The position numbers and the translations under genes were made by a program. The notes under the pieces were generated by a model. The model saw only the letters and a program-made list of their open reading frames with translations, was not told where the DNA came from and did not search any database. A stretch of DNA of 64,000 nucleotides from positions 3,328,001 through 3,392,000 of the forward strand of contig OX638351.1 in assembly GCA_951813565.1 (NCBI GenBank), read 5' to 3'. Origin of the DNA: an uncultured Poribacteria bacterium. GTDB taxonomy: Bacteria; Poribacteria; WGA-4E; WGA-3G. Below, piece by piece: positions 17,567 through 54,672 of the stretch; position 1 is the stretch's first letter, and the number at the start of each line of letters is the position of its first letter.

Positions 17567-18041
17567 CAGGGTTATTTAGTTTTAGGGTTTTTGCACATTT
17601 TCGTCAAAAAGTCGCGAGCTGGAGCTCGCTCCTACAGTAAGAGGGGCATTCAAGAATAACCGAAAATATGGAGAACTAAATGAGGGGTGTGCATAAATAT
17701 TTGGCGCATCAACACAGACAGGGACAGACGCCAGGTGCCGCTTGATTTATAGAAATGCGTTTGTAGTCGCGCAATTCATTGCCAAATCAACACAGCATGC
17801 GCCAAATCAAGAAATCAACGGTATGAATCATGGCGAATCATGTAGAATACCAAAAGCGTATTCTACCAAGCGCATTCGTCTTTAGTCATTCACCGGGTCC
17901 GAATGCCTTATGGCATTCCCCGTGTGGCATGCTGCGCCTCTTTGAACTTGCGGACGGAAACCCACGCCGTGTGCCGTCCACCTTTAAGCGCATATTTAAC
18001 ATCGGAATTATTTATGCACACCCCTCAACTAAATAACCCTG
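17567..18041. mobile_element. MITE family A (CAGGGTTATTTAGTT termini) containing a REP and a nested family B MITE
   Basis: TIR CAGGGTTATTTAGTT / AACTAAATAACCCTG; flanks GTATTGCAG / GTGTTGCAA (degenerate 9-bp TSD). The same element occurs inverted at 56470-56690. Confidence 0.8.
17682..18026. mobile_element. MITE family B, 345 bp, copy 1
   Basis: TIR GAGGGGTGTGCATAAATA / TATTTATGCACACCCCTC; perfect 8-bp TSD AACTAAAT; near-identical copy at 48877-49221. Confidence 0.9.
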
Positions 18042-18145
18042 GTGTTGCAATTGGAAAGAACGATTAACATCGCGGCATTTAGCAAGGAGATCACCCTATG
18101 ATAATAAATAAAACGCACCTTTGAAGTGGCAAAATTCTAAAAGAA

Positions 18146-18175
18146 TTGACACTTCTTGGACTAAAATGTTAGAAT
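18146..18175 (+). promoter_or_regulatory. Sigma70-type promoter of the protease gene
   Basis: TTGACA-18 nt-TAGAAT with an extended -10 TG, upstream of RBS AAGGAG. Confidence 0.55.
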
Positions 18176-18230
18176 TTCAGAATAAATCTACAAACGAATC
18201 TATTTCATTGTATAAACAAAAAGGAGTATC

Positions 18231-19646
18231 ATGAAACAAATTTTTCAAAAAACATCCATCCTTTTACTGCTTTTCACATTTATTACAGCAAACGCCAACG
18301 CAGCGCACAACTGGACAGAACAGATTGCCAGTTTTAAACCGATGGTAGTGAATGTCGAAACTGCTTCTGAGGTTGTCTTCGAAACGGAATCAAAAGGCAC
18401 AAGCTTCGCTACCGGTTTCGTAGTTGATGCAGAACGTGGGATTATCGCCACGAACCGACATGTTACAGGCAGCAGTCCTGCCTATGTTAAAATCAACTTT
18501 CATGATGGTAGCTTTACAGAAGCAAATATTCTTTACTATGACCCAACGCACGACTTCGGATTTTATAAGATTGATCCTGCTGAAGTTGATTTTGAACTGC
18601 AAGCCGTTGAACTTGGTGAATGGGATAAACTCGCGCTCGGCGATGAACTACTGCTGATTGGCAACAACGAAAAAGAGGAATATTCTATCAAATTTGGTAC
18701 GATTGCGAACCTCAATGTCAACAAAGGTGATAGACATTCAAGTTACATCCATACCACGTTCGACAGAACAGGCGGGTCAAGTGGTAGTCCTGTATGGAAC
18801 ACCGCGGGCGAGGTTATTGCTATCCATGCACGCGGAACAGACACCTCCAGTTTTGAATTACCCATTGATTACCTTATTGATGCGCTGGAATTAATTCAGA
18901 ACGAGATGCCTATTCAACGTGGCGAAATCGGTGTTGATCTTGAACTTATCTCCATTGGAGAAGCCATAAAACATTTTAATTTTCCAGAGGTTTTACGCAA
19001 AGAGATTGGTCCTTCCAAAGCTGGCACACCGAAAGTTATTCAGGTAGAATCTATGGTGCCGCGGACAACAGGTGAAACCATCCTCCGAGCATCCGATATT
19101 ATCTATCGCATTAACGATGAACTTATCCGAGATGATTTATACACCTTTGATGCTATTCTGAATCAGAACGTCGGTAAAGAAGTCACTTTGGACATCTACC
19201 GTAATGGAGAAAACCTCAGTCTTCAGGTGCCCGTAGAGAATTTAGAGAAAAAGAAAGTTCAGAGATTCGTTCGATTCGGTGGTGCTGTTTTTCACGACAT
19301 AACGCCGCAGCTGCGTCGGTTGCTCTACTTGGAAGCTAACGGTGTCTATATGCCCCATGCCGCTGCGGGTAGTAGTTTTTCACGTGTCGGTGTACAAGAG
19401 CGGAACGGTAATTCTAAGGTGGTTATTCTTGATGTAAATGGAAAGCAGATTCGGAATCTGGACGATTTCATTGAGGCATGCAAAACCATTACCGATGGAC
19501 AACACACTTATGTTGTTGTCCGAGATTTCAATCTGTTTGACAGCTCCCCAACCCCGAAAAGTTTAACGGTCAACCTTAAATTCGGTCCATTGCAACAATT
19601 TAAATGGGATTCTGAGAAGTTAGATTGGGAAGAAGTAGTTGAGTAA
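18231..19646 (+). CDS. Secreted trypsin-like serine protease with PDZ domains (HtrA superfamily, Nma111/DEG7-like)
   Basis: Signal peptide; 'ATGFVVDAERGIIATNRHV', 'YYDPTHDFGF', 'GGSSGSPV'; two PDZ-like regions. Confidence 0.85.
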   Translation: MKQIFQKTSILLLLFTFITANANAAHNWTEQIASFKPMVVNVETASEVVFETESKGTSFATGFVVDAERGIIATNRHVTGSSPAYVKINFHDGSFTEANILYYDPTHDFGFYKIDPAEVDFELQAVELGEWDKLALGDELLLIGNNEKEEYSIKFGTIANLNVNKGDRHSSYIHTTFDRTGGSSGSPVWNTAGEVIAIHARGTDTSSFELPIDYLIDALELIQNEMPIQRGEIGVDLELISIGEAIKHFNFPEVLRKEIGPSKAGTPKVIQVESMVPRTTGETILRASDIIYRINDELIRDDLYTFDAILNQNVGKEVTLDIYRNGENLSLQVPVENLEKKKVQRFVRFGGAVFHDITPQLRRLLYLEANGVYMPHAAAGSSFSRVGVQERNGNSKVVILDVNGKQIRNLDDFIEACKTITDGQHTYVVVRDFNLFDSSPTPKSLTVNLKFGPLQQFKWDSEKLDWEEVVE

Positions 19647-20203
19647 TACCAAATTAACGGGATTTATCGCATTTTCCGGACGGTAGGTGCGGTTTCCTAA
19701 ACGCTCCATAACTGTCAATTTAAGAAAAAAAGCGTAGTCGCGCAATTCATTGCCAAATCAACGCCAAGCGCACTTGGGCGAATACGCCAAATCAACGGTC
19801 CGAATCATGGCGAATGCCGGACGGGGAATGCCAAAGGGCATTCATACCCGGTGAATGACTAAAGACGAATGCGCTTTTGGCATTCGCCATGATTCATACC
19901 GTTGATTTCTTGATTTGGCGCATTCGTCTTTAGGCACTCCCCGTGTGGTATTCGCCATGACTTGTCGCCTCGGACATTCTGTAGGAGCGAGCTCCAGCTC
20001 GCGACCGGGAGGTCGCTCCTACAGAAGAAAATCGGGGTTGAAAACCCGCCAAATGCCAAAAAGCGCATTTGGCGTTGATTTGGCAGCATGCCAAACGCGC
20101 ATGCTGCGTTGATTCGCTCCCACAAGAGGGTATATCCTTAAATTGACGCATAAGGCGCGTTTTCCTAACTGCTCCATAAATATGAATCAAGTTAATGTGG
20201 TAT
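19646..20203. repeat. Composite nested palindromic element: MITE-like ends, GTAG REPs and micro-hairpin units
   Basis: Outer IR ATACCAAATTAAC / GTTAATGTGGTAT; inner IR GTCAATTTAAG (19714) / CTTAAATTGAC (20137); REP GTAGGAGCGAGCTCCAGCTCGCGA at 19981; many modules shared with MITE B. Confidence 0.75.
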
Positions 20204-20563
20204 AAGAAAACGCGCTAAAATAAAAGTAAACGAACCTTTTATTTTTAGCTATGTCTAATTGAAAATGAGGGCAATTGATTTTCGCCCAGATTTAGGTCAC
20301 CGCTTCCTTCAAGAGGAATTCAAGGTCATCCGATATTGAATGCCTTTTAAGAGTTAGATTCTTCTTTCTCATTTTAGTAAAATTCAGTATACTCTTACCA
20401 TTGATTGCGAGCGTGGTCAAGAGTTTCTTCACTTACAGAATCCCAATGGGTAGATTCTATTATCCGATGCTGACCCTGCGCGTTGTGGACTCGGATTCCG
20501 TCTTGATCCAGGCGATGGCTCGGGTTACGCGTTTCTTATTCATCATTTTTTGAATAAAAAACT

Positions 20564-20591
20564 TTGACATCACCAAATAATATTGTATAAT
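20564..20591 (+). promoter_or_regulatory. Consensus sigma70 promoter
   Basis: TTGACA-16 nt-TATAAT upstream of RBS AGGAGG (20701) and ATG 20716. Confidence 0.7.
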
Positions 20592-20715
20592 GTATACAAT
20601 TTGCTGGATCAGTAAAGATTGGTATGGTAGAATGGGTGCAGTTTATTCAAGCTTATGTAACTTAACGCGAAACTCACGTAAAAGTGAGATTCATTTTTAT
20701 AGGAGGTTGAACGGC

Positions 20716-21411: not shown

Positions 21412-21433
21412 ACACAAATATCGGACATTTTCT

Positions 21434-21476
21434 AAATCGGCTTGAATCCAGTAATAACTTGGTTTGAGCCGATTTT
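21434..21476 (+). terminator. Terminator-like hairpin
   Basis: AAATCGGCTTGAATCCA...TGGTTTGAGCCGATTTT, just after the 21411 stop. Confidence 0.6.
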
Positions 21477-21573
21477 CATATCTGCTTGAAACCGTATGGA
21501 CTATACTGGTGAGGACCTTTTTGATTTTGAACCGCGAAAATCTTCATGCTCATATTGATTATGAGTTTATAAC

Positions 21574-21957
21574 ATGGAATTCCTCAATGACCATCGTGCT
21601 TGGAAGCAGAATGATACTAATCCTCCGTTTGGTGCGGTAAAAATCGGCACTTGGTACTGGATGAAGGCTGAAATATCAGACGATGGTTTTACGGGCAAAA
21701 TCTGGGAAGATGGCGAAGCAGAACCGAGAGATTGGCTCCTTGAAAGCGCACTTGGTTTTGGTGGTCTTAGACCGAAAAGTGGTCAAGTGGGTCTAAATGG
21801 AGGATCAAGCAGTGATCCGCCTGGGCTTACGGTTGTATCATTTGATAATTGGACGATCTGCGAAACAGCTGATGAGTGCACACCGGATGAGATTCTTGCT
21901 GTTCAAGCAGCTGGCAAACTTCCAACGGTTTGGGGAGTACTCAAAGCGCACTATTAA
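21574..21957 (+). pseudogene. C-terminal fragment of a secreted lectin-like beta-sandwich protein with a TWG-like tail
   Basis: No signal peptide or clear RBS; 'GTWYWMKAEI', 'SGQVGL', 'VSFDNW'; tail AVQAAGKLPTVWGVLK. Confidence 0.6.
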
Positions 21958-22893: not shown

Positions 22894-23150
22894 TTTCTCG
22901 GTAATTGCTTTTGAACATTTGCATGAGTCTGCATCAAAATTGTGCTATTACTTATAGATATTTTATCAAATATAGGTGAAATTGCAAGGGAAATCAGTAT
23001 TGCTCAATAGATTGCCACTAAACTTTTATACTCGAATTGCGTCAAAATTGCTAATATACTTTATCAAGAAATTTCTGCACTCAGAATTTGTTCTGAACTT
23101 TTGAAATTGATTATTGTCAAAAATAAAAGGCTTGTTAAAATTACGACTTG

Positions 23151-23380
23151 TGCCAGTTAAGTGAAAGTTTTGTTGTTTTTCACAATTGTTCATATTTTGG
23201 AATCAACGCCAAATACGCTTTTGGCATTTGGCCGGAGCGATCTCCGAATCGCGACACGTTTGCAGTCGGGAATCGGAGTTCCCTCCTACCTTGAGGACAG
23301 CAGCTATCGGAAAAGTTGCGGAATGCAAACCCAAACAAGAGGAACATGTGAAATATAAATATACCAAATGTTAACTGGCA
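23151..23380. repeat. MITE-like element with a REP doublet and a micro-hairpin unit
   Basis: IR TGCCAGTTAA / TTAACTGGCA; internal GGAGCGATCTCCGAATCGCGAC...GTCGGGAATCGGAGTTCCCTCCTAC; unit at 23200-23232. Confidence 0.65.
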
Positions 23381-23431
23381 TAACGCGTTAAAATTACAAT
23401 TTTCTACAATATAAGTTTTAAGTTTAAGGAG

Positions 23432-31266: not shown

Positions 31267-31453
31267 ACCTAAGTTGCTACGGACAAGATTTCAAGTTAGC
31301 AAACACTGCTTTTTACTGAAAAAACAAGGCTTTTCGCTGATTCTTATGTTTTTTGTTCTAAAATCCAAATCAACACCAAATGCGCGTTTGGCATTTGGCG
31401 GGGTTAGAAACCCCTCCTACAAGAGCATTTGCGGAATAGGTGGCAACTTGGGT
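31267..31453. mobile_element. MITE family D containing a REP and a micro-hairpin unit
   Basis: TIR ACCTAAGTTGCTAC / GTGGCAACTTGGGT flanked by a TAATTTA direct repeat. Confidence 0.7.
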
Positions 31454-41300: not shown

Positions 41301-42704
41301 GTGAATTTAAATCTTCAACTTACAACGCAAACCAAAATTTTGATTGGTGTTCTGGCAGTTGTCCTGATTGCTGCAGTTGCAACACAATGGGGCCCTGGGT
41401 TATACGGTTCGTTTTCTAATAAAGAAATGAAAAACAAGCAGCAAACCCTGCAGACATCTAAAGATTTGGTAGCGGCATCAGAAATTCTGAAACCGATTGA
41501 AACCGATTTGTATCAGAAAACAGGACTTTCTGACGAGGAAAAAACTACGACTATTTTTGATGGGGCTTATGCTGAAACGGTTATCCGTGAGAAAATTGAC
41601 GCAATCGTGAAAAAAGCTGGCATTCCACAAAATTATCAGTTGAATCTGGAACAAGTCCCAGGCAAAAAATCAGAGAAAATATCAACTCAGGCACGTCGAA
41701 ACCTTGTTGTTTATTTTTATCAGAAGAAATTGGAAACAGAGCGAGATGTCCTCAAAGACGAAATTGAGGCTGAATTCCAAGATGAATTTGAATTTGAAGA
41801 AGAAGTTGGTGTTGATGAAGCATCTATGGATATGTTGATGGCGGCATGGCTGGACGAAACAGACGAGGATGACGCCGAAACACCAAAAGAATCTGAAAAG
41901 CCTGAAAAAAATAAAGGTGATTCTGAGAAACTATCCGATGAAGATCAAGATGATTCCGAGAAACTATCTAAGGTAAAAATAGACGAGGATGACGCCGAAA
42001 CACCAAAAGAATCTGAAAAGCCTGAAAAAAATAAAGATGGGGCTGAGAAGCTATCTAAGGTAAAAACAGACGAGGATGCCGAAATACAGCAAAAACCGCA
42101 AGAGTCCTACAAGAATCAAAACGATTCGGAAAATTCGATGAATACTGAATCCCAATGGGGATTCGCATCAATGCCAGAATCTATACCGAGTTCAATGCGG
42201 CTTGAACTCATTGAACTTATTATTTCAATGATAGAGCAGCATCTTGTAGGTGCGGAAAAAACACTGTTTGAAAACGAATTCTATGAGATACAAAAACAGG
42301 CGGCCTCTGGGTTTTTTGGCATTGGTGCTAAAAAACCTAAAAACGAGATTAACTTTAATCCAAATAGCCAGATTTTAACCAAGTTCACAGGACTTATTAA
42401 GACTTATGGGGAAAGATTGGACGAGGAAACAGCCACGACAGAACTTCTTAAATATCTTGAACGGATTCAATCACAAATTGCAGAACTTTCCCAAAAGTTA
42501 CAAATGGCTCCCACTTCCTATTTACCTGAAAGTTATACCGTAAAAATGAAATTTAAAGCGGAAATTGATAAACTCGTTAACTTAAATCGACTCATTGAAA
42601 CAACAACTAAATGGTTGATGGTAAGAGATCTTCAAATTTCCGTTGACAACAAAGACAATAAAATAAATGTGGATGTGCTAATGATTGCGAGGGTCTATCA
42701 ATGA
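41301..42704 (+). CDS. GspM/PilO-like protein with a large acidic repetitive insertion
   Basis: N-terminal TM segment; C-terminal ferredoxin-like 'YTVKMKFKA...LIE...LMVRDLQIS'; lies between the pilM-like gene and the secretins. Confidence 0.55.
   Translation: MNLNLQLTTQTKILIGVLAVVLIAAVATQWGPGLYGSFSNKEMKNKQQTLQTSKDLVAASEILKPIETDLYQKTGLSDEEKTTTIFDGAYAETVIREKIDAIVKKAGIPQNYQLNLEQVPGKKSEKISTQARRNLVVYFYQKKLETERDVLKDEIEAEFQDEFEFEEEVGVDEASMDMLMAAWLDETDEDDAETPKESEKPEKNKGDSEKLSDEDQDDSEKLSKVKIDEDDAETPKESEKPEKNKDGAEKLSKVKTDEDAEIQQKPQESYKNQNDSENSMNTESQWGFASMPESIPSSMRLELIELIISMIEQHLVGAEKTLFENEFYEIQKQAASGFFGIGAKKPKNEINFNPNSQILTKFTGLIKTYGERLDEETATTELLKYLERIQSQIAELSQKLQMAPTSYLPESYTVKMKFKAEIDKLVNLNRLIETTTKWLMVRDLQISVDNKDNKINVDVLMIARVYQ
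41861..42078 (+). repeat. Intragenic duplication encoding DEDDAETPKESEKPEKNK
   Basis: 41861-41916 is repeated at 41981-42036 (120-nt period), with a partial third copy. Confidence 0.85.
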
Positions 42705-45700
42705 CAAAAATGTGTGATAGTTTGGCGTTCCGTTTATCGGGACAAAACCGTAAAATCTGCTTAGTTTTTCTGGTGTGTTTCGGCTTACTCTTCTTAATGC
42801 AAGGAGATTTGTCCGCGCAACAGCAGGGACAAATGGAAGTCGCAGAAAGAGACGAAGCTACTGGTAGAGCAATACGTTTTAACTTCAACTTTACAAGCCG
42901 GGAACTCAAAAACGTATTTGAGTGGTTGGCCCGTGAAACCGACCTCACCATTATCGCAAGCGAAAGCGATATCCAAGGCAAACCTTTCTCATTGATTAAC
43001 CTCAATAATGTCACACTTGATGAAGTCATTGAGCATATCAAGACTGTGCTTGCACAATATAATTTGACATTTGTTCGTGTTAATAGCACTCTCCTTATCA
43101 CAACGTTTGAAAAAGCGACTGTAATGAATGTTCCAGTAAAGATTATCCAAGCGGATCCGGAACAGGTTGAAATGACAGATGAGATCCAGACTTACATTAT
43201 CCAGTTGGAAAATGCGTCTGCCTCGGAACAAGCGGGTGTTCTAAAACCTTTGTTGAACAAACAAGCAAACATCTTCGCTGATGCGATGACCAATGCGCTT
43301 GTCATTACTGATGTTGCTTCAAACGTTCATAGAATTGTGTCTATTTTACAATTTGCTGATGAAGGTGAACGTTTCCCCTTAAAAATTACTATTGTCCCTT
43401 TATCCTATGCCGACGCTACTTCTGTAGCACAAACCCTCACAAATGTTTTTGAGGATAATGAAGAAGATGCCAAATCGGCAACAGGTCCAACGGGTATTGA
43501 CCCTGAACAGATCAAGCAAGCGATTGAACAAGGCTTAGGTGTAGAGTTGATTGATGGCATAGTTAAGGTTTATGCGGATACCAACTCTAATTCTCTCATT
43601 ATTAAAGCCACCGAAGAAAACCTTATTATTCTAAAAGAAATTATCCGTCATCTTGATAAAGCGCCAACACTTCAGACAGAAATCCGAACCTTTCGTCTCA
43701 ATTATGCTTCAGCGGAGGAGGTTGCGACAACGCTTGAAGAGATCATCACCGGTGAAAGCGGCCAAGGTGGTGGTAGAAGAAGTTTCGACAGAGAGGATAT
43801 GTTGGAAATGCTTTATGATCGACGTAGGCGAGGGGATACAGGTGATCTCTTTCAAGGCATTGTCGGATTGGTAAACATCTCACGGAGTGATCGCTTAAAC
43901 ATTGTCGTTATTTCATCAGATCCACGCAACTTTCCAATTATAGAAAAGCTTATCAATGAACTGGATCAGGAACAGACACAGGAAGAGATCAAGATGTATT
44001 TCCTGCAATTTGCAAACGCAGAAACACTCTCCACGAATTTAGAAGATTTGTTTGAAGGGGGAGGCGGTGGAGATGATGATGATCGTCCTTGGTGGGACCG
44101 GGGGCGAAGAGAAAGTGAATCAACTGATGCTGGTGGATTTGGTGTTCAAGGTGAAGTGCATATCGTCTTTGATGCGCGACTCAACGCATTACTGATTTCA
44201 ACCGCTTCACAGAATTTTCCCATGATAGACAAAATAATCAACGACCTTGATGTTAGCATGCCTGAACAGGAATGGGGTACTCGTATCTTTTATCTCAAAT
44301 ATGCTGACGCAGAAAATGTCGCCAATCTATTGAATGAACACTACGGTGGGAATTCCGGTAGCAGTAGTAGGAGCAGGTTTGATGATTTTTGGTGGGTTCG
44401 TGGTCGGAGTTCCTCATCTTCTGGTGCACAGACACAAGGTTCTCTTGCTGGTAATGTTACCGCTCAACCTTTCCCCAATCTAAATGCGGTTATCATATCT
44501 ACAGGCACTAAACGCAACTTTGAAATGATTGACGAGTTTATCAAACAAATTGACGTGCCTACACCACCGGAACAGGTAGAAGTTACTGAGACAATACGTC
44601 TTGAATATGCGACCGCAGATTCGATTGCACAAATACTTGCACAAGTGTGGCAAGACGCACAGGCAGAGGATGAAGGTTTTGGTTTTAGTAGATTCTTCCG
44701 ATCATCCTTTGAGGAAGACGAACCGGCGGATGTCAATTCGTTACACGGGAAGGTGACAGTCTTTGCGGATCCAGATACGAATTCGCTTATTGTCACAACT
44801 CGGCGCCGCTATCTTGAACAGGTTAGATTTCTTATCAAACAGCTTGATTTTGTTCGCGGACAGGTATGGATTGATATAAAGATTCTTGAGGTTACGCTTG
44901 ATGAAACTACAAAACTCGGTATAGAGCTTACCGCTAATGAAAAGGGAGTTGGCGGCATTGAACTTGGTCCAGGCAATCCGCTTATTGGAGACACAGATGC
45001 TGAACTCGGTCTGGAACAAGAAATCTCTGGATTTACCTATGGTTTGGCAACTAAAGAGTATATGGCACTCCTGCACACACTTATCCGTGAAAATAAAGTT
45101 CAAACGCTTTCAACACCATCTCTTTTAACCCGTGATAGTCGTTCTGCTACATGGAGTAGTGGACGGCGCATTCCATACCTCCAGAGTGTGGATACTAATA
45201 GCATACTTGGGGATACAGCAACACAACCACTCTTCAATTACGATTTTATTGATCCACCCGTCGGTATTAACATTGACCTCACGCCTTATATCGCAAGGTC
45301 TCAAGTGGGAGAAGACGGGAAACGGACAATCGGTTTAGATATTACGAATATCAGTGCCAGCAACTTTATTGAATTTACCGATTTTAACGCACCGATAACA
45401 GATGATAATGCCCTCAGCGTCTATATTGATGTTGAAGACGGACAACGACTCATCGTCGGTGGTATTATTCGCAAAAAACAGAAACAGGTTGAAAACAAAG
45501 TTCCTGTCCTCGGTGATATTCCTTTACTTGGAAGACTATTCAAAAGCACCGAAACCGAAGTACAAGATACAGAGATTGTCTTCATTATTACGCCTCATAT
45601 CGTGGACATTCAGAATCCGGAAGACTTAGAAAAGTTGAAGCAGAAAGCTGACAACTGGCAAAGTAATGGAATGAACGATTTAGAGGATTCCAGCAACTAA
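42701..45700 (+). CDS. gspD: T2SS secretin, copy 1 (six NolW/N3-type domains)
   Basis: N0 domain, repeated 'L.YA.A' N-domains, 'QVWIDIKILEV', 'KVPVLGDIPLLGRLFKS', 'FIITPHIV'. Confidence 0.9.
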   Translation: MTKMCDSLAFRLSGQNRKICLVFLVCFGLLFLMQGDLSAQQQGQMEVAERDEATGRAIRFNFNFTSRELKNVFEWLARETDLTIIASESDIQGKPFSLINLNNVTLDEVIEHIKTVLAQYNLTFVRVNSTLLITTFEKATVMNVPVKIIQADPEQVEMTDEIQTYIIQLENASASEQAGVLKPLLNKQANIFADAMTNALVITDVASNVHRIVSILQFADEGERFPLKITIVPLSYADATSVAQTLTNVFEDNEEDAKSATGPTGIDPEQIKQAIEQGLGVELIDGIVKVYADTNSNSLIIKATEENLIILKEIIRHLDKAPTLQTEIRTFRLNYASAEEVATTLEEIITGESGQGGGRRSFDREDMLEMLYDRRRRGDTGDLFQGIVGLVNISRSDRLNIVVISSDPRNFPIIEKLINELDQEQTQEEIKMYFLQFANAETLSTNLEDLFEGGGGGDDDDRPWWDRGRRESESTDAGGFGVQGEVHIVFDARLNALLISTASQNFPMIDKIINDLDVSMPEQEWGTRIFYLKYADAENVANLLNEHYGGNSGSSSRSRFDDFWWVRGRSSSSSGAQTQGSLAGNVTAQPFPNLNAVIISTGTKRNFEMIDEFIKQIDVPTPPEQVEVTETIRLEYATADSIAQILAQVWQDAQAEDEGFGFSRFFRSSFEEDEPADVNSLHGKVTVFADPDTNSLIVTTRRRYLEQVRFLIKQLDFVRGQVWIDIKILEVTLDETTKLGIELTANEKGVGGIELGPGNPLIGDTDAELGLEQEISGFTYGLATKEYMALLHTLIRENKVQTLSTPSLLTRDSRSATWSSGRRIPYLQSVDTNSILGDTATQPLFNYDFIDPPVGINIDLTPYIARSQVGEDGKRTIGLDITNISASNFIEFTDFNAPITDDNALSVYIDVEDGQRLIVGGIIRKKQKQVENKVPVLGDIPLLGRLFKSTETEVQDTEIVFIITPHIVDIQNPEDLEKLKQKADNWQSNGMNDLEDSSN

Positions 45701-45804
45701 TTGTAAAATTCTATTGAATTCCTTTCTTTAGTGTAGATATACACGCAGTCGTGCATCTAAACGCATTGATGGAGATTGATATCTGTTTTCAGAAAAAATA
45801 ACTG

Positions 45805-48800
45805 TTGACCTTGAATGATTACGAGGCATTGTCAATGATAAAAAAATATAGTAACTTGCTGCGCGCGTTATCGGGACAAAAACGCAATATCTGCTTAGTT
45901 TTTCTGATGTGTTTCGGCTTGCTCTTCTTAATACAAGGAGATTTGTTCGCGCAACAACAGGGACAAATGGAAGTCGCAGAAAGAGACGAAGCTACCGGTA
46001 GGGCAATACGTTTCAACTTCAACTTTACAAGCCGGGAACTCAAGAACGTGTTTGAGTGGTTGGCCCGTGAAACCGACCTCACCATTATCGCAAGCGAAAG
46101 CGATATCCAAGGCAAACCCTTCTCATTGATTAACCTCAATAATGTCACACTTGATGAAGTCATTGAGCATATCAAGACTGTGCTTGCACAATATAATTTA
46201 ACCTTTGTTCGTGTTAATAGCACTCTCCTTATCACAACGTTTGAAAAAGCGACTGTAATGAATGTTCCAGTGAAGATTATCCAAGCGGATCCGGAACAGG
46301 TTGAAATGACAGATGAGATTCAGACTTACATTATCCAGTTGGAAAATGCGTCTGCCTCAGATCAAGTTGGCACTCTAAAACCTTTATTGAACAGACAAGC
46401 GAATATTTTTGCGGATGCGATGACGAATGCACTTGTCATTACTGATGTTTCTTCAAACGTCCGCAGAATTGTGTCCATTTTACAATTCGCTGATGAAGGT
46501 GAACGTTTCCCCTTAAAGATTACTATTGTTCCACTTACCTATGCGGATGCTCAAGCAGTTGCACAGACACTCACGAGGGTCTTTGAGGATAACAAAGAAG
46601 ATACCAAATCAGCAACAGGTCCAACGGGTATTGACCCTGAACAGATCAAGCAAGCGATTGAACAAGGCTTAGGTGTAGAGTTGATTGATGGCATGATTAA
46701 GGTCTATGCTGATGTTAATTCTAACTCGCTTGTTCTAAAAGCGACTGAAGAAAACCTTATTATTCTAAAAGAAATCATTCGTCATCTTGATAGAGTCCCA
46801 ACGCTTCAGACAGAAATCCGAACCTATCATCTCAACTATGCTTCAGCGGAGGATGTTGCTACAACGCTTGAAGAGGTTATCACCGGTGAAAGCAGCCAAA
46901 ATTCTGGAAGTTTTGGTAGGTGGGATGCTGAGAAAATGCGCGCATTTCGACGGGAAAGAGGTGACACAAGTAGTCTCTACCAAGGGATTGTTGGAACGGT
47001 AAATGTCTCACGGAATGATCGCTTAAACATTGTCGTTGTTTCGTCAGATCCACGCAATTTTAGCATTATTGAGAAGATAATCAATGAGTTAGATCAGGAG
47101 CAAACACAGGAAGAAATCAAGATGTATTTCCTTGAGTTCGCAAATGCTGAAACACTCTCCACGAATCTACAAAACCTGTTCGAAGGGGGAAGTGGTGGAG
47201 ATGACGATCGGCCTTGGTGGGACAGAGGGCGAAGTGATAGTAGATCAACTGATGGTGGCGGATTTGGTGTTCAAGGTGAAGTGCATATCGTTTTTGATGC
47301 GCGCCTCAATGCCTTGCTGATCTCAACCGCTTCACAGAACTTTCCCATGATAGAGAAAATAATCAACGACCTTGATGTTAGCATGCCTGAACAGGAATGG
47401 GGTACCCGTATCTTTTATCTTAAATATGCTGACGCAGACAATGTCGCCAATCTATTGAATGCACACTACGGTGGAAACGCCAGTAGCAACAACCGGTCCA
47501 ATGATTTCTGGTGGGTTCGCAGTCGGAGTTCCTCATCTTCTGGTGCACAGACACAAGGTTCTCTTGCTGGTAATGTTACCGCTCAACCTTTCCCCAATCT
47601 AAATGCGGTTATCATATCTACAGGCACAAAGCGCAACTTTGACATGATTGATGAGTTTATCAAACAAATTGACGTGCCTACGCCACCGGAACAGGTAGAA
47701 GTTACTGAGACAATTCGACTTGAATATGCGACCGCAGAGTCTATTGCACAAATACTTGCACAAGTGTGGCAAGACCAGCAAGGACAAGACGATGAGTTTG
47801 GTTTTGTTATATTTGTCCGATCAAACAGCGACCCCAGCGACGAACCGACGGACATCAATTCATTGCACGGGAAGGTGACAGTCTTTGCGGATCCGGATAC
47901 AAACTCGCTTATTGTCACAACTCGACGCCGCTATCTTGACCAAGTTAAAGCGCTAATTAAACAGCTTGATTTTGTTCGTGGACAGGTATGGATTGATATA
48001 AAGATTCTTGAGGTTACGCTTGATGAAACTACAAAACTCGGTATAGAAATGTCCGCTAATGAAAGGAAACTTGGCGGTATTGAACTTGCTTCAGGTAATC
48101 CGCTTGTTGGAGATACAAATGCTGAACTCGGTCTGGAGCAGGAGATATCGGGATTTAACTATAGTCTGGCAACTAAAGAGTATATGGCACTACTTCATAC
48201 CCTTATCCGTGAAAATAAGGTCAAAACCATCTCGAATCCAACGCTTATGACACGCGATAGTAAAGCTGCTATATGGAGTAGTGGACGGCGCATTCCATTT
48301 CTTCAAAGCGTTGATACCAATAGTATCCTTGGAGACACCGCTACTCAGCCACTCTTCAACTACGATTTTATTGATCCACCCGTCGGCATCAACATTGAAC
48401 TCACGCCTTATATTGCTAAATCCCAAGCGGGAGAAGATGGGAAGCGGACAATTGGCTTAGCCATTACGAATATCAGTGCCAGCAACTTCATTGAATTTAC
48501 CGATTTTAACGCACCGATTACGGAAGATAACTCTATTAGTGTTGTTATTGACGTTGAAGATGGTCAGAAGCTTATTATCGGTGGCATTATTCGCAAAAAA
48601 CAGAAACAAGTTGAAAGCAAAGTTCCAATCCTCGGTGATATTCCTTTACTTGGAAGGCTATTCAAAAGCACCGAAACCGCAGTTGAAGATACTGAGATTG
48701 TCTTTATTATTACGCCTCACATCGTGGATATTCAGAATCCGGAAGATTTAGAAAAGTTGAAGCAGAGAGCTGACAACTGGCAAAATAATGGAATAAACGA

Positions 48801-48822
48801 TTTAGAGGATTCCAGCAACTAA
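45805..48822 (+). CDS. gspD: T2SS secretin, copy 2
   Basis: Same architecture, with long stretches identical to copy 1. The start may be ATG 45835. Confidence 0.9.
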   Translation: MTLNDYEALSMIKKYSNLLRALSGQKRNICLVFLMCFGLLFLIQGDLFAQQQGQMEVAERDEATGRAIRFNFNFTSRELKNVFEWLARETDLTIIASESDIQGKPFSLINLNNVTLDEVIEHIKTVLAQYNLTFVRVNSTLLITTFEKATVMNVPVKIIQADPEQVEMTDEIQTYIIQLENASASDQVGTLKPLLNRQANIFADAMTNALVITDVSSNVRRIVSILQFADEGERFPLKITIVPLTYADAQAVAQTLTRVFEDNKEDTKSATGPTGIDPEQIKQAIEQGLGVELIDGMIKVYADVNSNSLVLKATEENLIILKEIIRHLDRVPTLQTEIRTYHLNYASAEDVATTLEEVITGESSQNSGSFGRWDAEKMRAFRRERGDTSSLYQGIVGTVNVSRNDRLNIVVVSSDPRNFSIIEKIINELDQEQTQEEIKMYFLEFANAETLSTNLQNLFEGGSGGDDDRPWWDRGRSDSRSTDGGGFGVQGEVHIVFDARLNALLISTASQNFPMIEKIINDLDVSMPEQEWGTRIFYLKYADADNVANLLNAHYGGNASSNNRSNDFWWVRSRSSSSSGAQTQGSLAGNVTAQPFPNLNAVIISTGTKRNFDMIDEFIKQIDVPTPPEQVEVTETIRLEYATAESIAQILAQVWQDQQGQDDEFGFVIFVRSNSDPSDEPTDINSLHGKVTVFADPDTNSLIVTTRRRYLDQVKALIKQLDFVRGQVWIDIKILEVTLDETTKLGIEMSANERKLGGIELASGNPLVGDTNAELGLEQEISGFNYSLATKEYMALLHTLIRENKVKTISNPTLMTRDSKAAIWSSGRRIPFLQSVDTNSILGDTATQPLFNYDFIDPPVGINIELTPYIAKSQAGEDGKRTIGLAITNISASNFIEFTDFNAPITEDNSISVVIDVEDGQKLIIGGIIRKKQKQVESKVPILGDIPLLGRLFKSTETAVEDTEIVFIITPHIVDIQNPEDLEKLKQRADNWQNNGINDLEDSSN

Positions 48823-48876
48823 TCGTAAAATTCACTTGAATCCCCCTTAGTTTTTATATATATACTTAATTATCTT

Positions 48877-49221
48877 GAGGGGTGTGTATAAATATTTGGC
48901 GCATTAACACAGACAGGGACAGACGCCAGGTGCCGCTTGATTTATAGAAATGCGTTTGTAGTCGCGCAATTCATTGCCAAATCAACGCAGCATGCGCCAA
49001 ATCAAGAAATCAACGGTATGAATCATGGCGAATCATGTAGAATACCAAAAGCGTATTCTACCAAGCACATTCGTCTTTAGTCATTCACCGGGTCCGAATG
49101 CCTTATGGCATTCCCCGTGTGGCATGCTGCGCCTCTTTGAACTTGTGGACGGAAACCCACGGCGTGTGCCTATTACCTTTAAGCGCATATTTAACATCGG
49201 AATTATTTATGCACACCCCTC
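48877..49221. mobile_element. MITE family B, 345 bp, copy 2
   Basis: Near-identical to 17682-18026; flanks AATTATCTT / AATTGTCTT. Confidence 0.9.
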
Positions 49222-49331
49222 AATTGTCTTCTAAACTCATTGATGGGCGTTGATACCTATTTTCATATCTGAATGCTGTGGTGTTGAAACTTAATCTTGA
49301 GTATTTCAAACGCACACAACTGAATAAGTAA

Positions 49332-52300
49332 GTGTTGTGTTCTAATCATTACGAGACATTGTCAATGATAAAAAAATATAGTAACTTACTGCTCGCTTCA
49401 TCAAAACAAAATCGCAATATCTGCTCAGCTTTTCTGGTGTGTTTCGGCTTACTCTTCTTAATGCAAGGAGATTTGTCCGCGCAACAGCAGGGACAAATGG
49501 AAGTCGCAGAAAGAGACGAAGCTACTGGTAGAGCAATACGTTTCAACTTCAACTTTACAAGCCGGGAACTCAAGAACGTGTTTGAGTGGTTGGCCCGTGA
49601 AACCGACCTCACCATTATCGCAAGCGAAAGCGATATCCAAGGCAAACCTTTCTCACTGATTAACCTCAATAATGTCACACTTGATGAAGTTATTGAGCAT
49701 ATCAAGACTGTGCTTGCACAATATAATTTGACATTTGTTCGTGTTAATAGCACCCTCCTTATCACAACGTTTGATAAAGCGACTGTAATGAATGTTCCAG
49801 TGAAGATTATCCAAGCGGATCCGGAACAGGTTGAAATGACAGATGAGATCCAGACTTACATTATCCAGTTGGAAAATGCGTCTGCCTCGGAACAAGTTGG
49901 CGTTCTAAAACCTTTATTGAACAGACAAGCAAACATTTTTGCTGATGCGATGACAAATTCACTTGTTATTACCGATGTTGCTTCAAATGTGCATAGGATC
50001 GTCTCCATTCTCGAATTCGCTGATGAAGGTGAACGTTTCCCCTTAAAGATTACTATTGTTCCACTTACTTATGCGGATGCTGAAGCAGTGGCACAGACAC
50101 TCACAAGGGTCTTTGAGGATAACAAAGAAGATGCCAAGTCAGCAAGAGGGCAAACAGGTATTGACCCTGAACAGATCAAGCAAGCGATTGAACAAAGCTT
50201 AGGTGTAGAGTTGATTGATGGCATGATTAAGGTTTATGCTGATGCTAATTCTAATTCGCTTGTTCTTAAAGCGACCGAAGAAAACCTTGTTATTCTAAAA
50301 GAACTCATCCGTCATCTTGATAGAGCTCCAACGCTTCAGACAGAAATTCGAACCTATAGTCTCAAATATGCTTCAGCGGAGGATGTTGCTACAACGCTTG
50401 AAGAGATTATTATAGGTGAAAGTGGGCAGAGTACGGGAAGCGATGACAGGTGGATAGCTGAGAAAATTCGCGCATCTCGACGGGAAAGAGGTGAAGCAAG
50501 TAATCTCTACCAAGGGATTGTTGGAACGGTAAATATCTCACGCAATGATCGCTTAAACATTGTCGTTGTTTCGTCAGACACACGCAACTTCTCAATTATA
50601 GAAAAGCTCATCAATGAACTGGATCAGGAGCAAACGCAGGAAGAAATGAGGATGTACCTTCTTGAATTTGCAAAAGCTGAAGCGCTTGCCGCAAACATGA
50701 AAGACCTATTTGAAGGTGGTAGTGCCGGACAAGATAGAAATCGTCCGTGGTGGGATAGAAGAGATCGTGAACCGACAGAAAATGCTGGTTTCGGTGTGCA
50801 AGGAGCGGTACATATCGTCACTGATGGGCGACTCAACGCACTGCTAATCTCAACCGCTTCACAGAATTTTCCCCTGATTGAAGACTTAATCAATAGAATT
50901 GATGTTAACCTACCTGAACAAGAATGGAGCACGCGAATCTATAAAATTAAATATGTTGAAGCTGAAAGTGTCGCCACTCTGTTGAACACAGTCTACAAAG
51001 GTCAAATCAATATCGGTGGGAACCGCGCTAATTACTATTCCCTTTCCTATTATCTTCGCAGTCGAGAATTAGTACCGGATGAAGTACAAGGCACGCTTTC
51101 CAGCATGACTTATGCAGAGCCTTATCCGAATCTCAATGCCGTTATGGTATCTACGGGGACAAATCGCAACTTTGAACTCATTGAAGAATTCATTAGACAA
51201 ATTGACATACCTACACCCGAACACCATAGAGAGGTTACGGAGTCAATTCGCCTTGAATATGCAACCGCAGAGAATATTGCCCCAATACTCTCACAAGTGT
51301 GGCAAGATCCACAAAGTGAAGATCAGGGATTTAGTTTTAGTAGATTTTTCCGTTCATCCTCTGAGGAAAGCGAACCGACAGACATCAGTTCTTTATACGG
51401 CAAAGTTACTGTCTTTGCGGATCCGGATACGAACTCGCTCGTTGTTACAACTCGACGCCGCTATCTTGAACAAGTGCGAGCCCTGATTAAAAAACTTGAT
51501 TTTGTGCGTGGACAGGTATGGATTGATATAAAGATTCTTGAGGTTACGCTTGATGAAACCACAAAACTCGGTGTAGAAGCGGCTGCGAAAGAAAAGAAAC
51601 TTGGTGGAATTGATCTTAGTCCAAGTAATCCGCTTGTTGGGGAAGCAGATGCTGAACTCGGTTTGGAACAGGAGATCTCTGGGTTTAACTATAGTCTGGC
51701 AACCAAAGAGTATATGGCACTTCTCTACACTCTTATCCGCCAAAATAAGGTCAAAACGATCTCAACGCCATCGCTTTTGACACGCGATAGCAAAGCTGCG
51801 ACTTGGAGTAGTGGACGGCGCATTCCATTTTTACAAAGCGTTGATACCAACAGTATCCTTGGAGACACGGCTACTCAGCCACTTTTCAACTACGATTTTA
51901 TTGATCCACCCGTGGGAATTAACATCGTCCTGACACCTTATATTACAAAATCACAGGTTGGAGAAGATGGGAAACGGACAATTGGCTTAGACATTACGAA
52001 CATCAGTGCCAGCAACTTCATTGAATTTACCGATTTTAACGCACCGATAACAGATGATAACGTTCTCAGTGTCTATATTGATGTTGAAGATGGACAAAAA
52101 CTCATCGTCGGTGGTATCATTCGTAAGAAACAGAAACAGGTTGAAAACAAAGTTCCTATCCTCGGTGATATTCCTTTACTCGGAAGGCTATTCAAAAGCA
52201 CCGAAACCGAAGTGCAAGATACAGAGATTGTCTTCATTATTACGCCTCATATCGTGGATATTCAGAATCCGGAAGACTTAGAAAAGTTGAAGCAGAAAGC

Positions 52301-52352
52301 TGACAACTGGCAAAATAATGGAATAAACGATTTAGAGAATTTCATCAAATAG
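49332..52352 (+). CDS. gspD: T2SS secretin, copy 3 (most diverged middle region)
   Basis: Same architecture; N4-N6 region diverged from copies 1 and 2. Confidence 0.9.
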   Translation: MLCSNHYETLSMIKKYSNLLLASSKQNRNICSAFLVCFGLLFLMQGDLSAQQQGQMEVAERDEATGRAIRFNFNFTSRELKNVFEWLARETDLTIIASESDIQGKPFSLINLNNVTLDEVIEHIKTVLAQYNLTFVRVNSTLLITTFDKATVMNVPVKIIQADPEQVEMTDEIQTYIIQLENASASEQVGVLKPLLNRQANIFADAMTNSLVITDVASNVHRIVSILEFADEGERFPLKITIVPLTYADAEAVAQTLTRVFEDNKEDAKSARGQTGIDPEQIKQAIEQSLGVELIDGMIKVYADANSNSLVLKATEENLVILKELIRHLDRAPTLQTEIRTYSLKYASAEDVATTLEEIIIGESGQSTGSDDRWIAEKIRASRRERGEASNLYQGIVGTVNISRNDRLNIVVVSSDTRNFSIIEKLINELDQEQTQEEMRMYLLEFAKAEALAANMKDLFEGGSAGQDRNRPWWDRRDREPTENAGFGVQGAVHIVTDGRLNALLISTASQNFPLIEDLINRIDVNLPEQEWSTRIYKIKYVEAESVATLLNTVYKGQINIGGNRANYYSLSYYLRSRELVPDEVQGTLSSMTYAEPYPNLNAVMVSTGTNRNFELIEEFIRQIDIPTPEHHREVTESIRLEYATAENIAPILSQVWQDPQSEDQGFSFSRFFRSSSEESEPTDISSLYGKVTVFADPDTNSLVVTTRRRYLEQVRALIKKLDFVRGQVWIDIKILEVTLDETTKLGVEAAAKEKKLGGIDLSPSNPLVGEADAELGLEQEISGFNYSLATKEYMALLYTLIRQNKVKTISTPSLLTRDSKAATWSSGRRIPFLQSVDTNSILGDTATQPLFNYDFIDPPVGINIVLTPYITKSQVGEDGKRTIGLDITNISASNFIEFTDFNAPITDDNVLSVYIDVEDGQKLIVGGIIRKKQKQVENKVPILGDIPLLGRLFKSTETEVQDTEIVFIITPHIVDIQNPEDLEKLKQKADNWQNNGINDLENFIK

Positions 52353-52417
52353 TCCTTAGTAATGAAGGCCACTAATATTTGCAGTTATGCCTTTCGCGGG
52401 GCAGCCGTTAGCACTCC

Positions 52418-53776
52418 CCGTCAAACCCCCTGCCTTTAGGTAGGGGATGTAGACGGCGAAAGTTTTGATTTAAAATATACTTTTCAATCTAATCACAATG
52501 TGGTATAATATATCATACTATATTGTAGTTCTTGAAGTGATAAAAGAGTATATTGAAGGTCAAAGTGGTCAATGAGAAAATCTCACAAGTTCAAACTTCA
52601 ACACCAATCTAACACAATCAAACTCGGCAATATGCTTGATGATATGTGGGAAATCCATGTGCATATCGTGCGTTTAGCACGTAGGTATTATCGCATGTTC
52701 GGCAAAAATTTGTCTGCGTATCGTCTGAAGGCACACGTCACAAAACTTAAAAAGACAACTAAACCGCATTGGGCAGCCTTGCCGAGTCAAGTTGTGCCAG
52801 ACGTTGTCCTACGTTATGGTAAATCACAAGACGCATTTTTCCAAAATATAGCAAGCCGCAAATCAGGTAAAACAACGCGTAAAGTGGGTAGACCGAAAAT
52901 CAAACCGCGCCACAAATACAACTCCATGACCTTCACACAAGCGGGCTACAAACTTGAAGATAACCGTATCAAAATCAACTGTATAGATACATGGTTTTCC
53001 TACCACAAACACCGTGAAATCAAAGGTGTCATCAAGACGATCACCATCAAACGTGACAGGTGCGGTGACTATTGGATATGCTTTTCGTGCGAGAATGTTG
53101 ACGATCCCGAACCCAAACCCAAGACAGGTAAGAGCGCAGGATTTGATTACGGAAACAAAACATTCCTCACAAGCGACGAAGGGGACACAATAGAATCCCC
53201 GCAGTTTTTCAAACAATCACTCAACACGTTGCGATCTCTCAACAAAGCACTCAGTCGTAAAGTCAAAGGTTCTAACAACTATTATCGTGCGTGCCGTGCT
53301 TTAGCAAGGCAACACAGAAAAGTGGCACGACAAAGAGAAGATTGGCAATGGAAACTTGCCTCAAAACTTTGTGTAGAGTTTGACACACTCATTTTTGAAA
53401 CGCTGAACCTTGACGGTATGAAACGATTATGGGGACGTAAAGTTTCTGACCATTCTTTCTACCAGTTTCTTCAGATATTGGAACAGAAGTGTGCGAAGCA
53501 CGGCAAAAAACTTGTGCGAATCTCTCAATGGATAGCAACAACAAAACCTTGTAGTGATTGTGGATACCATAACAAAGAACTCTCTCTTTCTGATAGGCAG
53601 TGGACATGCCCCAAATGTGGCTCACACCACGACAGAGACATCAATGCTGCTATCAATATCAAACGGGCAGGCTTGGCTGCCTAAAGTGGAGCGACACTAA
53701 GACGGTCAACTCTCTGAGAAAACCGCAGTCGCAAGGAAGCACAAGCCCCTACCTTTAGGTAGTGGGTACCTATGAC
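52418..53776 (+). mobile_element. IS200/IS605-family non-autonomous (tnpB-only) element
   Basis: Subterminal hairpins CCCCTGCCTTTAGGTAGGGG (left) and CCCCTACCTTTAGGTAGTGGG...TGAC (right); no tnpA. Boundaries are approximate. Confidence 0.8.
52572..53684 (+). CDS. tnpB: RNA-guided endonuclease TnpB
   Basis: RuvC-I 'GFDYG', RuvC-II 'IFETL', zinc finger CSDC/CPKC, RuvC-III 'HDRDINAAINI'. Confidence 0.93.
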   Translation: MRKSHKFKLQHQSNTIKLGNMLDDMWEIHVHIVRLARRYYRMFGKNLSAYRLKAHVTKLKKTTKPHWAALPSQVVPDVVLRYGKSQDAFFQNIASRKSGKTTRKVGRPKIKPRHKYNSMTFTQAGYKLEDNRIKINCIDTWFSYHKHREIKGVIKTITIKRDRCGDYWICFSCENVDDPEPKPKTGKSAGFDYGNKTFLTSDEGDTIESPQFFKQSLNTLRSLNKALSRKVKGSNNYYRACRALARQHRKVARQREDWQWKLASKLCVEFDTLIFETLNLDGMKRLWGRKVSDHSFYQFLQILEQKCAKHGKKLVRISQWIATTKPCSDCGYHNKELSLSDRQWTCPKCGSHHDRDINAAINIKRAGLAA

Positions 53777-53794
53777 GTTGTTCCCACGTTTTTT

Positions 53795-54466
53795 TTATCG
53801 GGTATTCCGATAAAGTTTAGCAAGTCGTTCCAATGAGAAACCCAAAAAATAGAGAAAAGTGATAAGCCAATTTTTAGTTGTTGTTCGGACAATACCGTTT
53901 GCCTCCCACCGCCGTGCTGATATATGAATGCGAGGCTTAACCATTTTCGTTTTCCCTAACGTGCGTAATTCTTTAGAAAATCCCACCTCTTCCATAATCG
54001 GAACGTCAGGAAATCCACCGATACTCTGAAAGTCGTTTCTTGACACAAAAATCCCGCTATCCCCATAAAAAACTTTTAGATATTTACCGCGTATATCCGC
54101 GGCAATTTCAATCATGCGATACAGAATGTTCCTATCATCAATCTTTTGAAGAAACCCGCCACCGACATATCCCGATGATAGCGCTGTCTCGACTGCAGTA
54201 AACGCACCCGGTTCAAGCCACACATCTGCGTGTAAAAAAATTAGAATGTCACCTGTTGCTGCCGCTGCACCAGCGTTCAACTGTTTTGCGCGTCCTCGTT
54301 CGGATTTTACAACCTTCCCATACTTCTCTGCGATGCTGATGGAAGCATCTGTACTGCCACCATCTACAATAATAAGTTCATGGTTTTTCAATTCAGGCTG
54401 AAGTTGAGAGAGTGTTTTTTCCAATATCTTTGCTTCGTTCAGAATCGGAATAATGACTGATATCAT
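53795..54466 (-). CDS. GT2-family glycosyltransferase (TIGR04283-like)
   Basis: 'ISVIIPILNE', 'VDGGSTD', 'GRAKQLNAGA', 'FLHAD', 'YGDSGIF', 'SARRW'. Confidence 0.85.
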   Translation of the reverse strand: MISVIIPILNEAKILEKTLSQLQPELKNHELIIVDGGSTDASISIAEKYGKVVKSERGRAKQLNAGAAAATGDILIFLHADVWLEPGAFTAVETALSSGYVGGGFLQKIDDRNILYRMIEIAADIRGKYLKVFYGDSGIFVSRNDFQSIGGFPDVPIMEEVGFSKELRTLGKTKMVKPRIHISARRWEANGIVRTTTKNWLITFLYFLGFSLERLAKLYRNTR

Positions 54467-54492
54467 ATTATTTTATGCTACAACAAGACAAC

Positions 54493-54672
54493 ATCTCATA
54501 GATCACTTGTAGGGTAGGGTCTCTGTGCCCGCCCTGTCTTGGTTAAGGGAACAACGGGCGGGCACCAAATCACCGGGTCCGAATGCCCTTTGGCATTCCC
54601 CGGAGACCCGCCCCTACTATTGGATGATGTTGGAAAACGGAATAAAACCTAACAAAATTGGATTTATGAGAT
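54493..54672. repeat. Palindromic element with a GTAG REP doublet interrupted by a 36-nt micro-unit
   Basis: REP arm at 54509-54534; its complement at 54556-54617 is split by 54566-54601. Outer IR ATCTCATAGATC / GATTTATGAGAT. Confidence 0.75.

Follow-up and report, generated by a model that had tools for sequence, protein, structure and literature searches.

Very small leader-and-hairpin units inserted into palindromic repeats and into each other in a Poribacteria genome

The 64,000-nucleotide stretch analyzed here (hereafter the window) belongs to the genome of an uncultured Poribacteria bacterium (GenBank assembly GCA_951813565.1, contig OX638351.1, positions 3,328,001 to 3,392,000). Between its open reading frames (ORFs) it carries very short repeats, which we call units, each made of a leader and one small hairpin and 34-36 nt long in all. 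We conclude with high confidence that each unit is a discrete module and that insertion of such modules into hairpin repeats, among them repetitive extragenic palindromes (REPs), and into each other has occurred many times; the units are present in the genome far beyond chance. As to how they spread, the reading that we prefer, and to which we give about an even chance, is that they are genus-restricted modules copied in trans by a genus-wide factor other than a Y1 transposase, with joining by microhomology.

The host genome is a Candidatus Poribacteria metagenome-assembled genome (MAG) of one contig, 5.43 Mb long with 43% G+C. The relatives of a window gene all come from Candidatus Poribacteria MAGs, that is, from sponge symbionts, and the window is also present in sponge metagenome runs. 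Four of these runs, from four studies, were used for comparison; in them the window is present as Logan contigs only.

Anatomy, number and insertion sites of the units

Each unit starts with an unpaired 9-nt leader (two variable bases, then AATCAAC), which is followed by the hairpin. In U-type units a 9-bp stem begins directly after the leader and closes a loop of 5-9 nt of the GCGNNTG type. G-type units have the form GGTATGAATGCC-N4-5-GGCATTCCCC, a 7-bp hairpin with outer G:C pairs. An original prediction, made from the window sequence alone, had placed five units in the window, and all five are present at the places it gave. With borders refined, these units and the REPs that host them are:

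20083 to 20116, minus strand: U-type unit, leader CGAATCAAC, stem GCAGCATGC/GCATGCTGC; first of a tandem pair within a REP
20048 to 20082, minus strand: U-type unit, leader CAAATCAAC, stem GCCAAATGC/GCATTTGGC; second of this head-to-tail pair
20032 to 20123, minus strand: host REP split by the two preceding units, with head GTGGGAG and hairpin GGGTTTTCAACCCC
23199 to 23232, plus strand: U-type unit with one stem mismatch; adjoins a REP and is carried as a fixed passenger by a larger element
31366 to 31399, plus strand: U-type unit inserted at C^GGGG, the 5' foot of the REP hairpin 31400-31420
54566 to 54601, plus strand: G-type unit in a REP loop, leader variant CAAATCACC, stem GAATGCC/GGCATTC with outer G:C pairs
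54509 to 54617, no strand assigned: inverted REP pair (54509-54534 and 54556-54617), the second member of which hosts the 54566 unit

When the five units were folded as single-stranded DNA the leader was unpaired and the hairpin had an energy of -6.2 to -10.5 kcal/mol (z -2.1 to -3.0 against shuffles). All six unit loci of the window, complex clusters included, lie in gaps between ORFs.

The genome scan that the original prediction had called for gave 3179 AATCA[AC]C sites, 712 of which have a hairpin of at least 7 bp starting within 4 nt. A strict parser found 576 non-overlapping units in the genome (400 U-type, 176 G-type) and none in the reversed genome, and another 29 units became whole only once this first set had been cut out, a procedure we refer to as peeling. 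Lengths of 34, 35 and 36 nt were recorded for 286, 241 and 49 units, respectively. A looser count, requiring the leader and one of the common 9-nt stem starts, raised the total to about 850-890 copies, a large number of which are interrupted; these copies form 438 clusters with 1 to 11 members each. Arrays run head-to-tail with a period of 34-35 and with units abutting without spacer. Nearly all units (570/582) fall outside crude ORFs, which make up 79.6% of the genome, and unit orientation shows no bias relative to that of the neighboring genes. The units are thus non-coding and are not an oriented RNA element.

Three more familiar identities were considered and rejected. CRISPR repeats do not fit units that abut with a period of 34-35 and have no unique spacers, and intrinsic terminators do not fit hairpins followed by GGG and not by a run of T. 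The units are likewise no assembly artefact, an outcome that the original prediction had left open, since they are found in 39 other assemblies, in the short-read contigs of the four runs and in an independent metagenome contig. Within the 64-kb window there were no matches to Rfam 15 at gathering score, and viral contigs gave no matches to the strict unit pattern.

What is left when a unit is taken away? Each of 582 units was cut out, from 2 nt before AATCAAC to the last stem base, and the joined flanks (12 + 12 nt, with at most one mismatch in the right half) were sought elsewhere in the genome. At these borders an empty paralogue was found for 283 of the 582 units. Removing one base too many or too few left 0-32 empty paralogues, and frames shifted far away gave 32-74, which is the background set by tandem arrays. 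Of the 283 units, 250, 209 and 138 keep an empty paralogue when the frame is slid left by 1, 2 or 3 nt, respectively, whereas sliding it to the right drops the count to background; the base or bases before a unit repeat its last bases (C, GC or GGC).

We could assign the 222 non-tandem units that have an empty paralogue to 19 site types. A C precedes the unit in 17 of these types, and a G, usually as GGG, follows it in 16, so that the insertion site reads C^G(GG); it lies in loops or at feet of REPs and of other units. Units split the loops of other units, at GC^GTRTG, and REP loops in three families; they also stand at the apex of a palindrome with a GTAG head, at the 5' foot of REP hairpins (C^GGGGTT...) and at a REP head/hairpin junction (GTGGGAG^GGGTT...). 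On the 3' side most copies are followed by GGG or by the next unit. Neither the removal test nor the site types revealed any duplication at the unit borders beyond one shared C, and hence no target-site duplication (TSD) longer than 1 nt, in keeping with the original prediction, which had seen no clear one longer than 1-2 nt.

The same behavior can be read in the window. Cutting out both units at 20048 and 20083 restores GGGGTTGAAAACCCCTCCCAC, and the unfilled junction occurs 39 and 22 times genome-wide in two head variants. The original prediction was therefore right that removal restores a REP here: the restored form is GTGGGAG plus GGGTTTTCAACCCC, the 2-nt prefix included, with 39 unfilled copies, and the ...GAGC GGG... 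form that it had written occurs only 4 times. Its restoration of 31364-31420 holds: the empty paralogous form of the 31366 unit is present at high depth in contigs of other runs, with the joint 31362>31399. For 54556-54617 the restored arm does resemble the complement of its partner arm, as had been proposed, but differs from it at 3 positions.

Nesting is frequent. A search for hosts split by a unit returned 307 candidates, chance matches included. By hand count among the candidates listed, about 35 U-type hosts with four different stems contain an identical 35-nt G-type unit in the loop (GC^GTRTG), and in at least a dozen hosts a reversed unit interrupts the border between stem and loop. The loop that is split in nested hosts is intact in hundreds of un-nested ones, and for this reason we take the direction to be gain and not loss. 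Altogether the 582 units stand in 195 flank contexts, of which 142 are singletons. These observations uphold what the original prediction had at its core, namely discrete insertion units in REPs and in each other without a real TSD.

Hairpin variation and distribution among Poribacteria

That the stems vary yet stay paired was also part of the original prediction, and it applies genome-wide. In this genome stem positions 1, 3, 4, 5 and 8 carry alternative matched pairs, and of the 406 U-type stems 257 pair perfectly; random reassignment of the 3' arms gave a mean of 69.6 such stems and a maximum of 89. The 406 stems had been preselected at no more than one mismatch, which inflates the pairing and not the contrast with the shuffle. 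Other species have stems of their own: GCCGAATCC/GGAATTCG in genome G018 and GCCGAATAC/GTATTCG in genome G023, often in arrays of period 34, while a G-type stem of another species is GAACGCC/GGCGTTC. When copies from G018 and G023 were picked by the hairpin alone, AATCAAC stood directly before the stem in 95 of 100 (hand count). Recognition by a protein would be expected to produce such a combination of a fixed unpaired tag and a stem that co-varies freely.

For comparison between genomes we used a pattern consisting of the leader and a G...C-framed hairpin frame, with reversed sequences as controls. In the unit-bearing genus (g1) the pattern is present in 39/39 genomes, with 2-273 matches each as compared with 0-2 in the reversed controls. 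In the sister genus (g13), represented by 65 genomes, there are at most 6 matches per genome, at or near the control level. One genome of a neighboring genus (G110) has real units; in other families of the phylum there are mostly no more than 6 matches, and those listed form no hairpins. This pattern search indicates that the family is genus-restricted. Presence in 39/39 genomes against background in 65 genomes of the sister genus also makes the hunt for a responsible factor tractable by comparative genomics.

Composite loci and carrier elements

Besides the units listed above, the window has four larger composites, one of which is a miniature inverted-repeat transposable element (MITE) bounded by terminal inverted repeats (TIRs):

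23146 to 23387, plus strand: TIR-bounded MITE of about 240 bp that contains a unit and two inverted REPs, with an 11-bp flanking direct repeat GTTAAAATTAC
17783 to 17935, plus strand: nested composite whose outer U-type unit has leader CAAATCAAC and stem ACAGCATGC/GCATGCTGC
about 48978 to 49130, plus strand: paralogue of the 17783-17935 composite, its end coordinate deduced from equal architecture
about 19754 to 19960, both strands: complex nested cluster with leaders at 19756 (+), 19790 (+), 19907 (-) and 19915 (-), of which the parser resolves a part

The outer unit at 17783-17935 stands at the apex of a GTAG-headed palindrome (17763-17782 / 17936-17955). Nested in the loop of this unit, at GC^GTGTG, are about 119-120 nt made of further leader-plus-hairpin modules with a G-type unit at the end. 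The form that lacks the inner 120 nt is found at high depth in contigs of all four runs (joint 17802>17923) and represents other genomic copies. The cluster at 19754-19960 contains a sister module with the leader AATCATG and a partial leader duplication, AATCAAGAAATCAAC. Generic peeling collapses such complex clusters only partly because further module types are present. Sister modules at 17805-17860, 19907-19915 and 49000-49040 have AATCATG before the hairpin in place of AATCAAC, and genome-wide there are about 121 copies of AATCAAG directly followed by AAATCAACG.

Three tandem ORFs of 999, 1005 and 1006 aa occupy 42701-52352. Two of them share an identical 43-nt stretch and the third is one base off, which suggests that they are paralogues; a nested unit composite lies between the second and the third.

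How much of the family rides on larger elements? Units stand at a fixed place in one end of an insertion sequence (IS) in 27 copies, with one empty paralogue. Eleven copies with identical flanks belong to one TIR-bounded MITE, whose window copy is the element at 23146-23387 (class TGG); the unit at 23199, being a fixed passenger of this MITE, is not an independent insertion. Dozens more, as read from the copies listed, belong to one REP composite of the 20032-20123 type, and the largest flank clusters comprise 52, 45 and 34 units. It is of note that 177 copies of an 18-nt terminal motif, AACGTGAGTTTGATAAAT (at most 2 mismatches), lie at the ends of diverse IS- and MITE-like elements, for example at C1:69747 and 205058, and that one AACGTGAGTTTGATAAAT-ended family is the carrier of the 27 fixed-place units.

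Such carriers would be all there is to explain if the units were not self-mobile but were modules of a few longer repeats and old fixed features, an outcome that the original prediction had itself named as one that would undo it. The IS, the MITE and the large flank clusters agree with this account, as does the 54566 unit, which is fixed in a second sample. Yet it leaves unexplained the 195 flank contexts and 142 singletons, the 19 site types with exact empty paralogues, the recurrence of unit types in the loops of at least 4 different host stems, the range of 2-273 copies among species, and the species-specific stems in arrays. Membership in a longer repeat is thus true of a share of the copies but not of the family, and we consider the account very unlikely.

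Candidate mechanisms and known systems

The preferred reading starts from the sites described above. New copies go to C^G(GG) in loops or at feet of REPs of several families and of other units. A unit followed by GGG remakes the target site, and this remaking would explain nesting and head-to-tail arrays. The copying would be done by a factor acting in trans and kept throughout the genus, which would read the fixed leader and the hairpin shape, probably on single-stranded DNA at the replication fork; the factor would not be a Y1 (RAYT/IS200) transposase, and joining would be by short microhomology and not by a precise staggered cut. Many present copies are not independent insertions but have spread as passengers of REP composites, the MITE and the IS. 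In the copying-in-trans mechanism itself we have moderate to low confidence.

The joints are informative here. For 269 units no clean empty site was found; 109 of these have a paralogue in which 1-3 nt occupy the place of the unit (A 45, TT 19, G 8). In filled GTAGGAG heads, which come from several REP families, the sequence is always GT-G[unit]G-GGAG although the stems of the inserted units differ, and an unfilled GTGGGAG head of those families is not among the 15 commonest heads listed. One REP family has 134 copies with the loop GGCAC-A-GAGACC and 6 in which G replaces this single A; in 14 copies a unit occupies the position. The two bases ahead of AATCAAC likewise vary with context, being CA after C and TG or CG after GAG. 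Short microhomology fits these irregular joints better than a precise cut.

Joints of this kind would also be expected from enzyme-free template switching at stalled hairpins, in which a nascent ...C end pairs beside a unit, copies it and returns on the G-run, gene conversion then spreading the product. This is the main rival of the preferred reading. It accounts well for the GGG or next unit on the 3' side of most copies, the 1-3 nt of microhomology at the left border, the loss of 1-3 target bases with 109 units (a recurrent loss at GTAGGAG heads and in REP loops), the pre-AATCAAC bases that track context, and the use of hairpins as targets. It accounts poorly for a leader that is constant from species to species beside stems that change with compensation (the 95 of 100 copies from two other species) and for a family found in 39/39 genomes of one genus but not in a sister genus with comparable REPs and RAYTs (REP-associated tyrosine transposases). 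On balance we judge it unlikely.

Could a Y1 enzyme be responsible all the same? The original prediction suggested that an HUH Y1 enzyme (RAYT/TnpA-REP or IS200/IS605 TnpA) moves the units as single-stranded DNA, in the manner of REPs and IS608-type ends. The anatomy fits, with a single-stranded motif 5' of a hairpin and no TSD, and the units lie preferentially in or beside GTAG-REPs. The genome has 10 matches to Y1_Tnp (PF01797), namely five IS605-like tnpA genes, three RAYT-like genes with GTAG-REP flanks, and two of another type with their own repeats. When the 10 loci were examined, however, none had units as its own flanks. The five IS605-like copies have common ends that lack the AATCAAC leader and the unit hairpin and are unrelated to the units, and near Y1 genes the only units are those inserted into GTAG-REPs that lie upstream of two RAYT-like genes. 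RAYT-like genes are present in 28/39 genomes of the unit-bearing genus as against 53/65 of the unit-free sister genus. Five genomes of the unit-bearing genus without a RAYT-like match were then searched for the Y1 domain; two of them, G023 (one contig, 92% complete) and G001 (4 contigs, 97% complete), gave no PF01797 match although both bear units (G023 has 156 loose-pattern matches, overlaps being counted several times). Furthermore, a unit has one hairpin and not two distinct ends, and its sole fixed 5' base is C. Taken together these findings make an HUH enzyme quite improbable.

The three RAYT-like genes (C1:241978-242496, 5070794-5071330 and 3549542-3550111) include one with an in-frame TAG, and the first of them has an array of about ten REPs downstream.

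A third possibility is that units are transcribed, reverse transcribed and inserted. Such an RNA-mediated route has reportedly been proposed for the small dispersed repeats (SDRs) of cyanobacteria, whose nested behavior is analogous, and the genome has two reverse-transcriptase genes. Against it, the orientation of the units is unbiased relative to the neighboring genes and no run containing the region is recorded as RNA. Neither reverse-transcriptase gene is linked to units, and the position of one beside cas1 suggests another role. We regard this route as highly improbable. Two cas1 genes do lie between unit clusters (C1:3988878-3991839 and 1201868-1203938), probably by chance. The cas1-like ORF that adjoins a 465-aa reverse-transcriptase ORF may be part of a reverse transcriptase-linked CRISPR adaptation module.

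Several points weigh against the preferred reading. No responsible enzyme was identified among the Y1 loci, the reverse-transcriptase genes or the gaps between unit clusters, 90 of which contain ORFs and yielded no recurrent gene family that is likely to be relevant. Hitch-hiking in REP composites, the MITE and the IS accounts for much of the copy number, and the slightly irregular joints would also fit enzyme-free copying error. The units of the chromosome are balanced between strands (455 forward, 393 reverse; no strand bias), which says little because the weak GC skew does not allow origin and terminus to be located.

Comparison between strains adds to these points, since no filled/empty difference could be read for any single unit in the contigs of the four runs, in metagenome contigs or in related species. 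The Logan contigs end at every repeat cluster (17594/17999, 19673/20177, 23193/23351 and 30921/31404); that is, the repeat clusters fragment short-read assemblies of the symbiont. Unit-sized joints are found at 5-40x single-copy depth and hence derive from other genomic copies. Among 41 metagenome-contig loci one (L112) is near-identical to the window; it bridges the 54566 unit and carries it, with a canonical leader. Five relatives have 80-88% identity in the longer gene-bearing matches and are too far apart for comparison at the level of units, and at 80 loci around the gene 18231-19646 the intergenic DNA is too diverged and synteny is broken downstream. The two species-level differences that were seen concern whole composite elements and not single units; alignment with genomes G006, G002 and G012 of three related species shows, for instance, that the 23146-23387 MITE is missing at their syntenic site. 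All empty sites are therefore paralogues, and their source could also be loss of units or gene conversion between repeat copies.

The L112 contig differs from the window at 3 positions within the 36-nt 54566 unit and at 1 in the surrounding ~245 nt. Faster change inside units, or conversion, could produce this contrast.

A bolder form of the preferred reading would make the units a new kind of minimal mobile DNA, in which a genus-specific protein that is neither Y1 nor HUH recognizes the 7-nt single-stranded leader and the hairpin and copies the unit into C^G exposed in other hairpins. We put this forward tentatively and think it somewhat doubtful. If it were true, the units would be self-nesting elements some ten times smaller than a typical MITE. 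More generally, if the units are self-mobile they would be among the smallest mobile DNAs, at 34-36 nt, and a 7-nt tag and one hairpin would suffice for propagation. Units also reshape REPs and other repeats, and hence possibly RAYT substrates, and they build arrays; the intergenic regions of this uncultured sponge symbiont are accordingly highly changeable.

How do the units compare with elements already described? Among the papers listed by our literature search none had a title or abstract opening about such repeats in Poribacteria and, beyond SDRs, there was nothing nearer than REPINs. TIR-bounded MITEs differ in that the units have neither TIRs nor a TSD of fixed length (at most one shared C). 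The ends of IS200/IS605 elements consist of a hairpin and a short adjacent motif, act as single strands and make no TSD, and each element has two distinct ends. The units resemble them in having a hairpin plus motif and no TSD. Unlike miniature IS200/IS605 derivatives, however, they have a single hairpin and a target of only C at -1 and G(GG) at +1 instead of a fixed 4-5 nt; their ends match no full-length tnpA element, and they do not co-occur with Y1 genes.

REPs and REPINs with their RAYTs, as described by Bertels and Rainey 2011 (PMC3116915; see also the preprints bioRxiv 10.1101/2021.07.10.451892 and 10.1101/2022.05.22.493013), share more with the units: a single-stranded motif 5' of an imperfect palindrome, copy numbers in the hundreds, intergenic location, vertical persistence in a lineage and no TSD. 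The head of the unit is nevertheless (C)AAATCAAC and not GTAG, in 95 of 100 hairpin-selected copies from two other species and by definition in this genome, where GTAG-headed REPs form separate families. Unlike REPINs, the units are mostly single or head-to-tail, an inverted leader (3' flank GTTG) following only 12 of 406 U-type units. Nor do they flank RAYT genes or co-occur with them; rather, they insert into REPs.

The closest published analogue appears to be the SDR elements (SDR1-8) of Nostocaceae, and the suggestion in the original prediction that the units belong to no described class was too strong insofar as very small, nested, dispersed repeats were already described there. SDRs are reportedly 21-27 nt long, very small and non-coding, with a hairpin kept by compensatory changes, and are said to nest in their own copies and in other short repeats within one lineage; we know of no enzyme for them. 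The units are likewise very small and dispersed, have a conserved hairpin, nest in themselves and in other short repeats, and are confined to one lineage. They differ, on the descriptions of SDRs and not on their sequences, in being 34-36 nt long with a fixed unpaired 9-nt leader, and in targeting C^G(GG) in REP hairpins whereas SDRs reportedly target HIP1 or heptamer repeats. The reference for SDRs is Elhai et al. 2008 (Genome Res 18:1484), cited in PMC3116915, and PMC5861425 records no SDR-like repeats outside Nostocaceae among HIP1-rich cyanobacteria. The units, in contrast, are hosted not by Nostocaceae but by a phylum of sponge symbionts.

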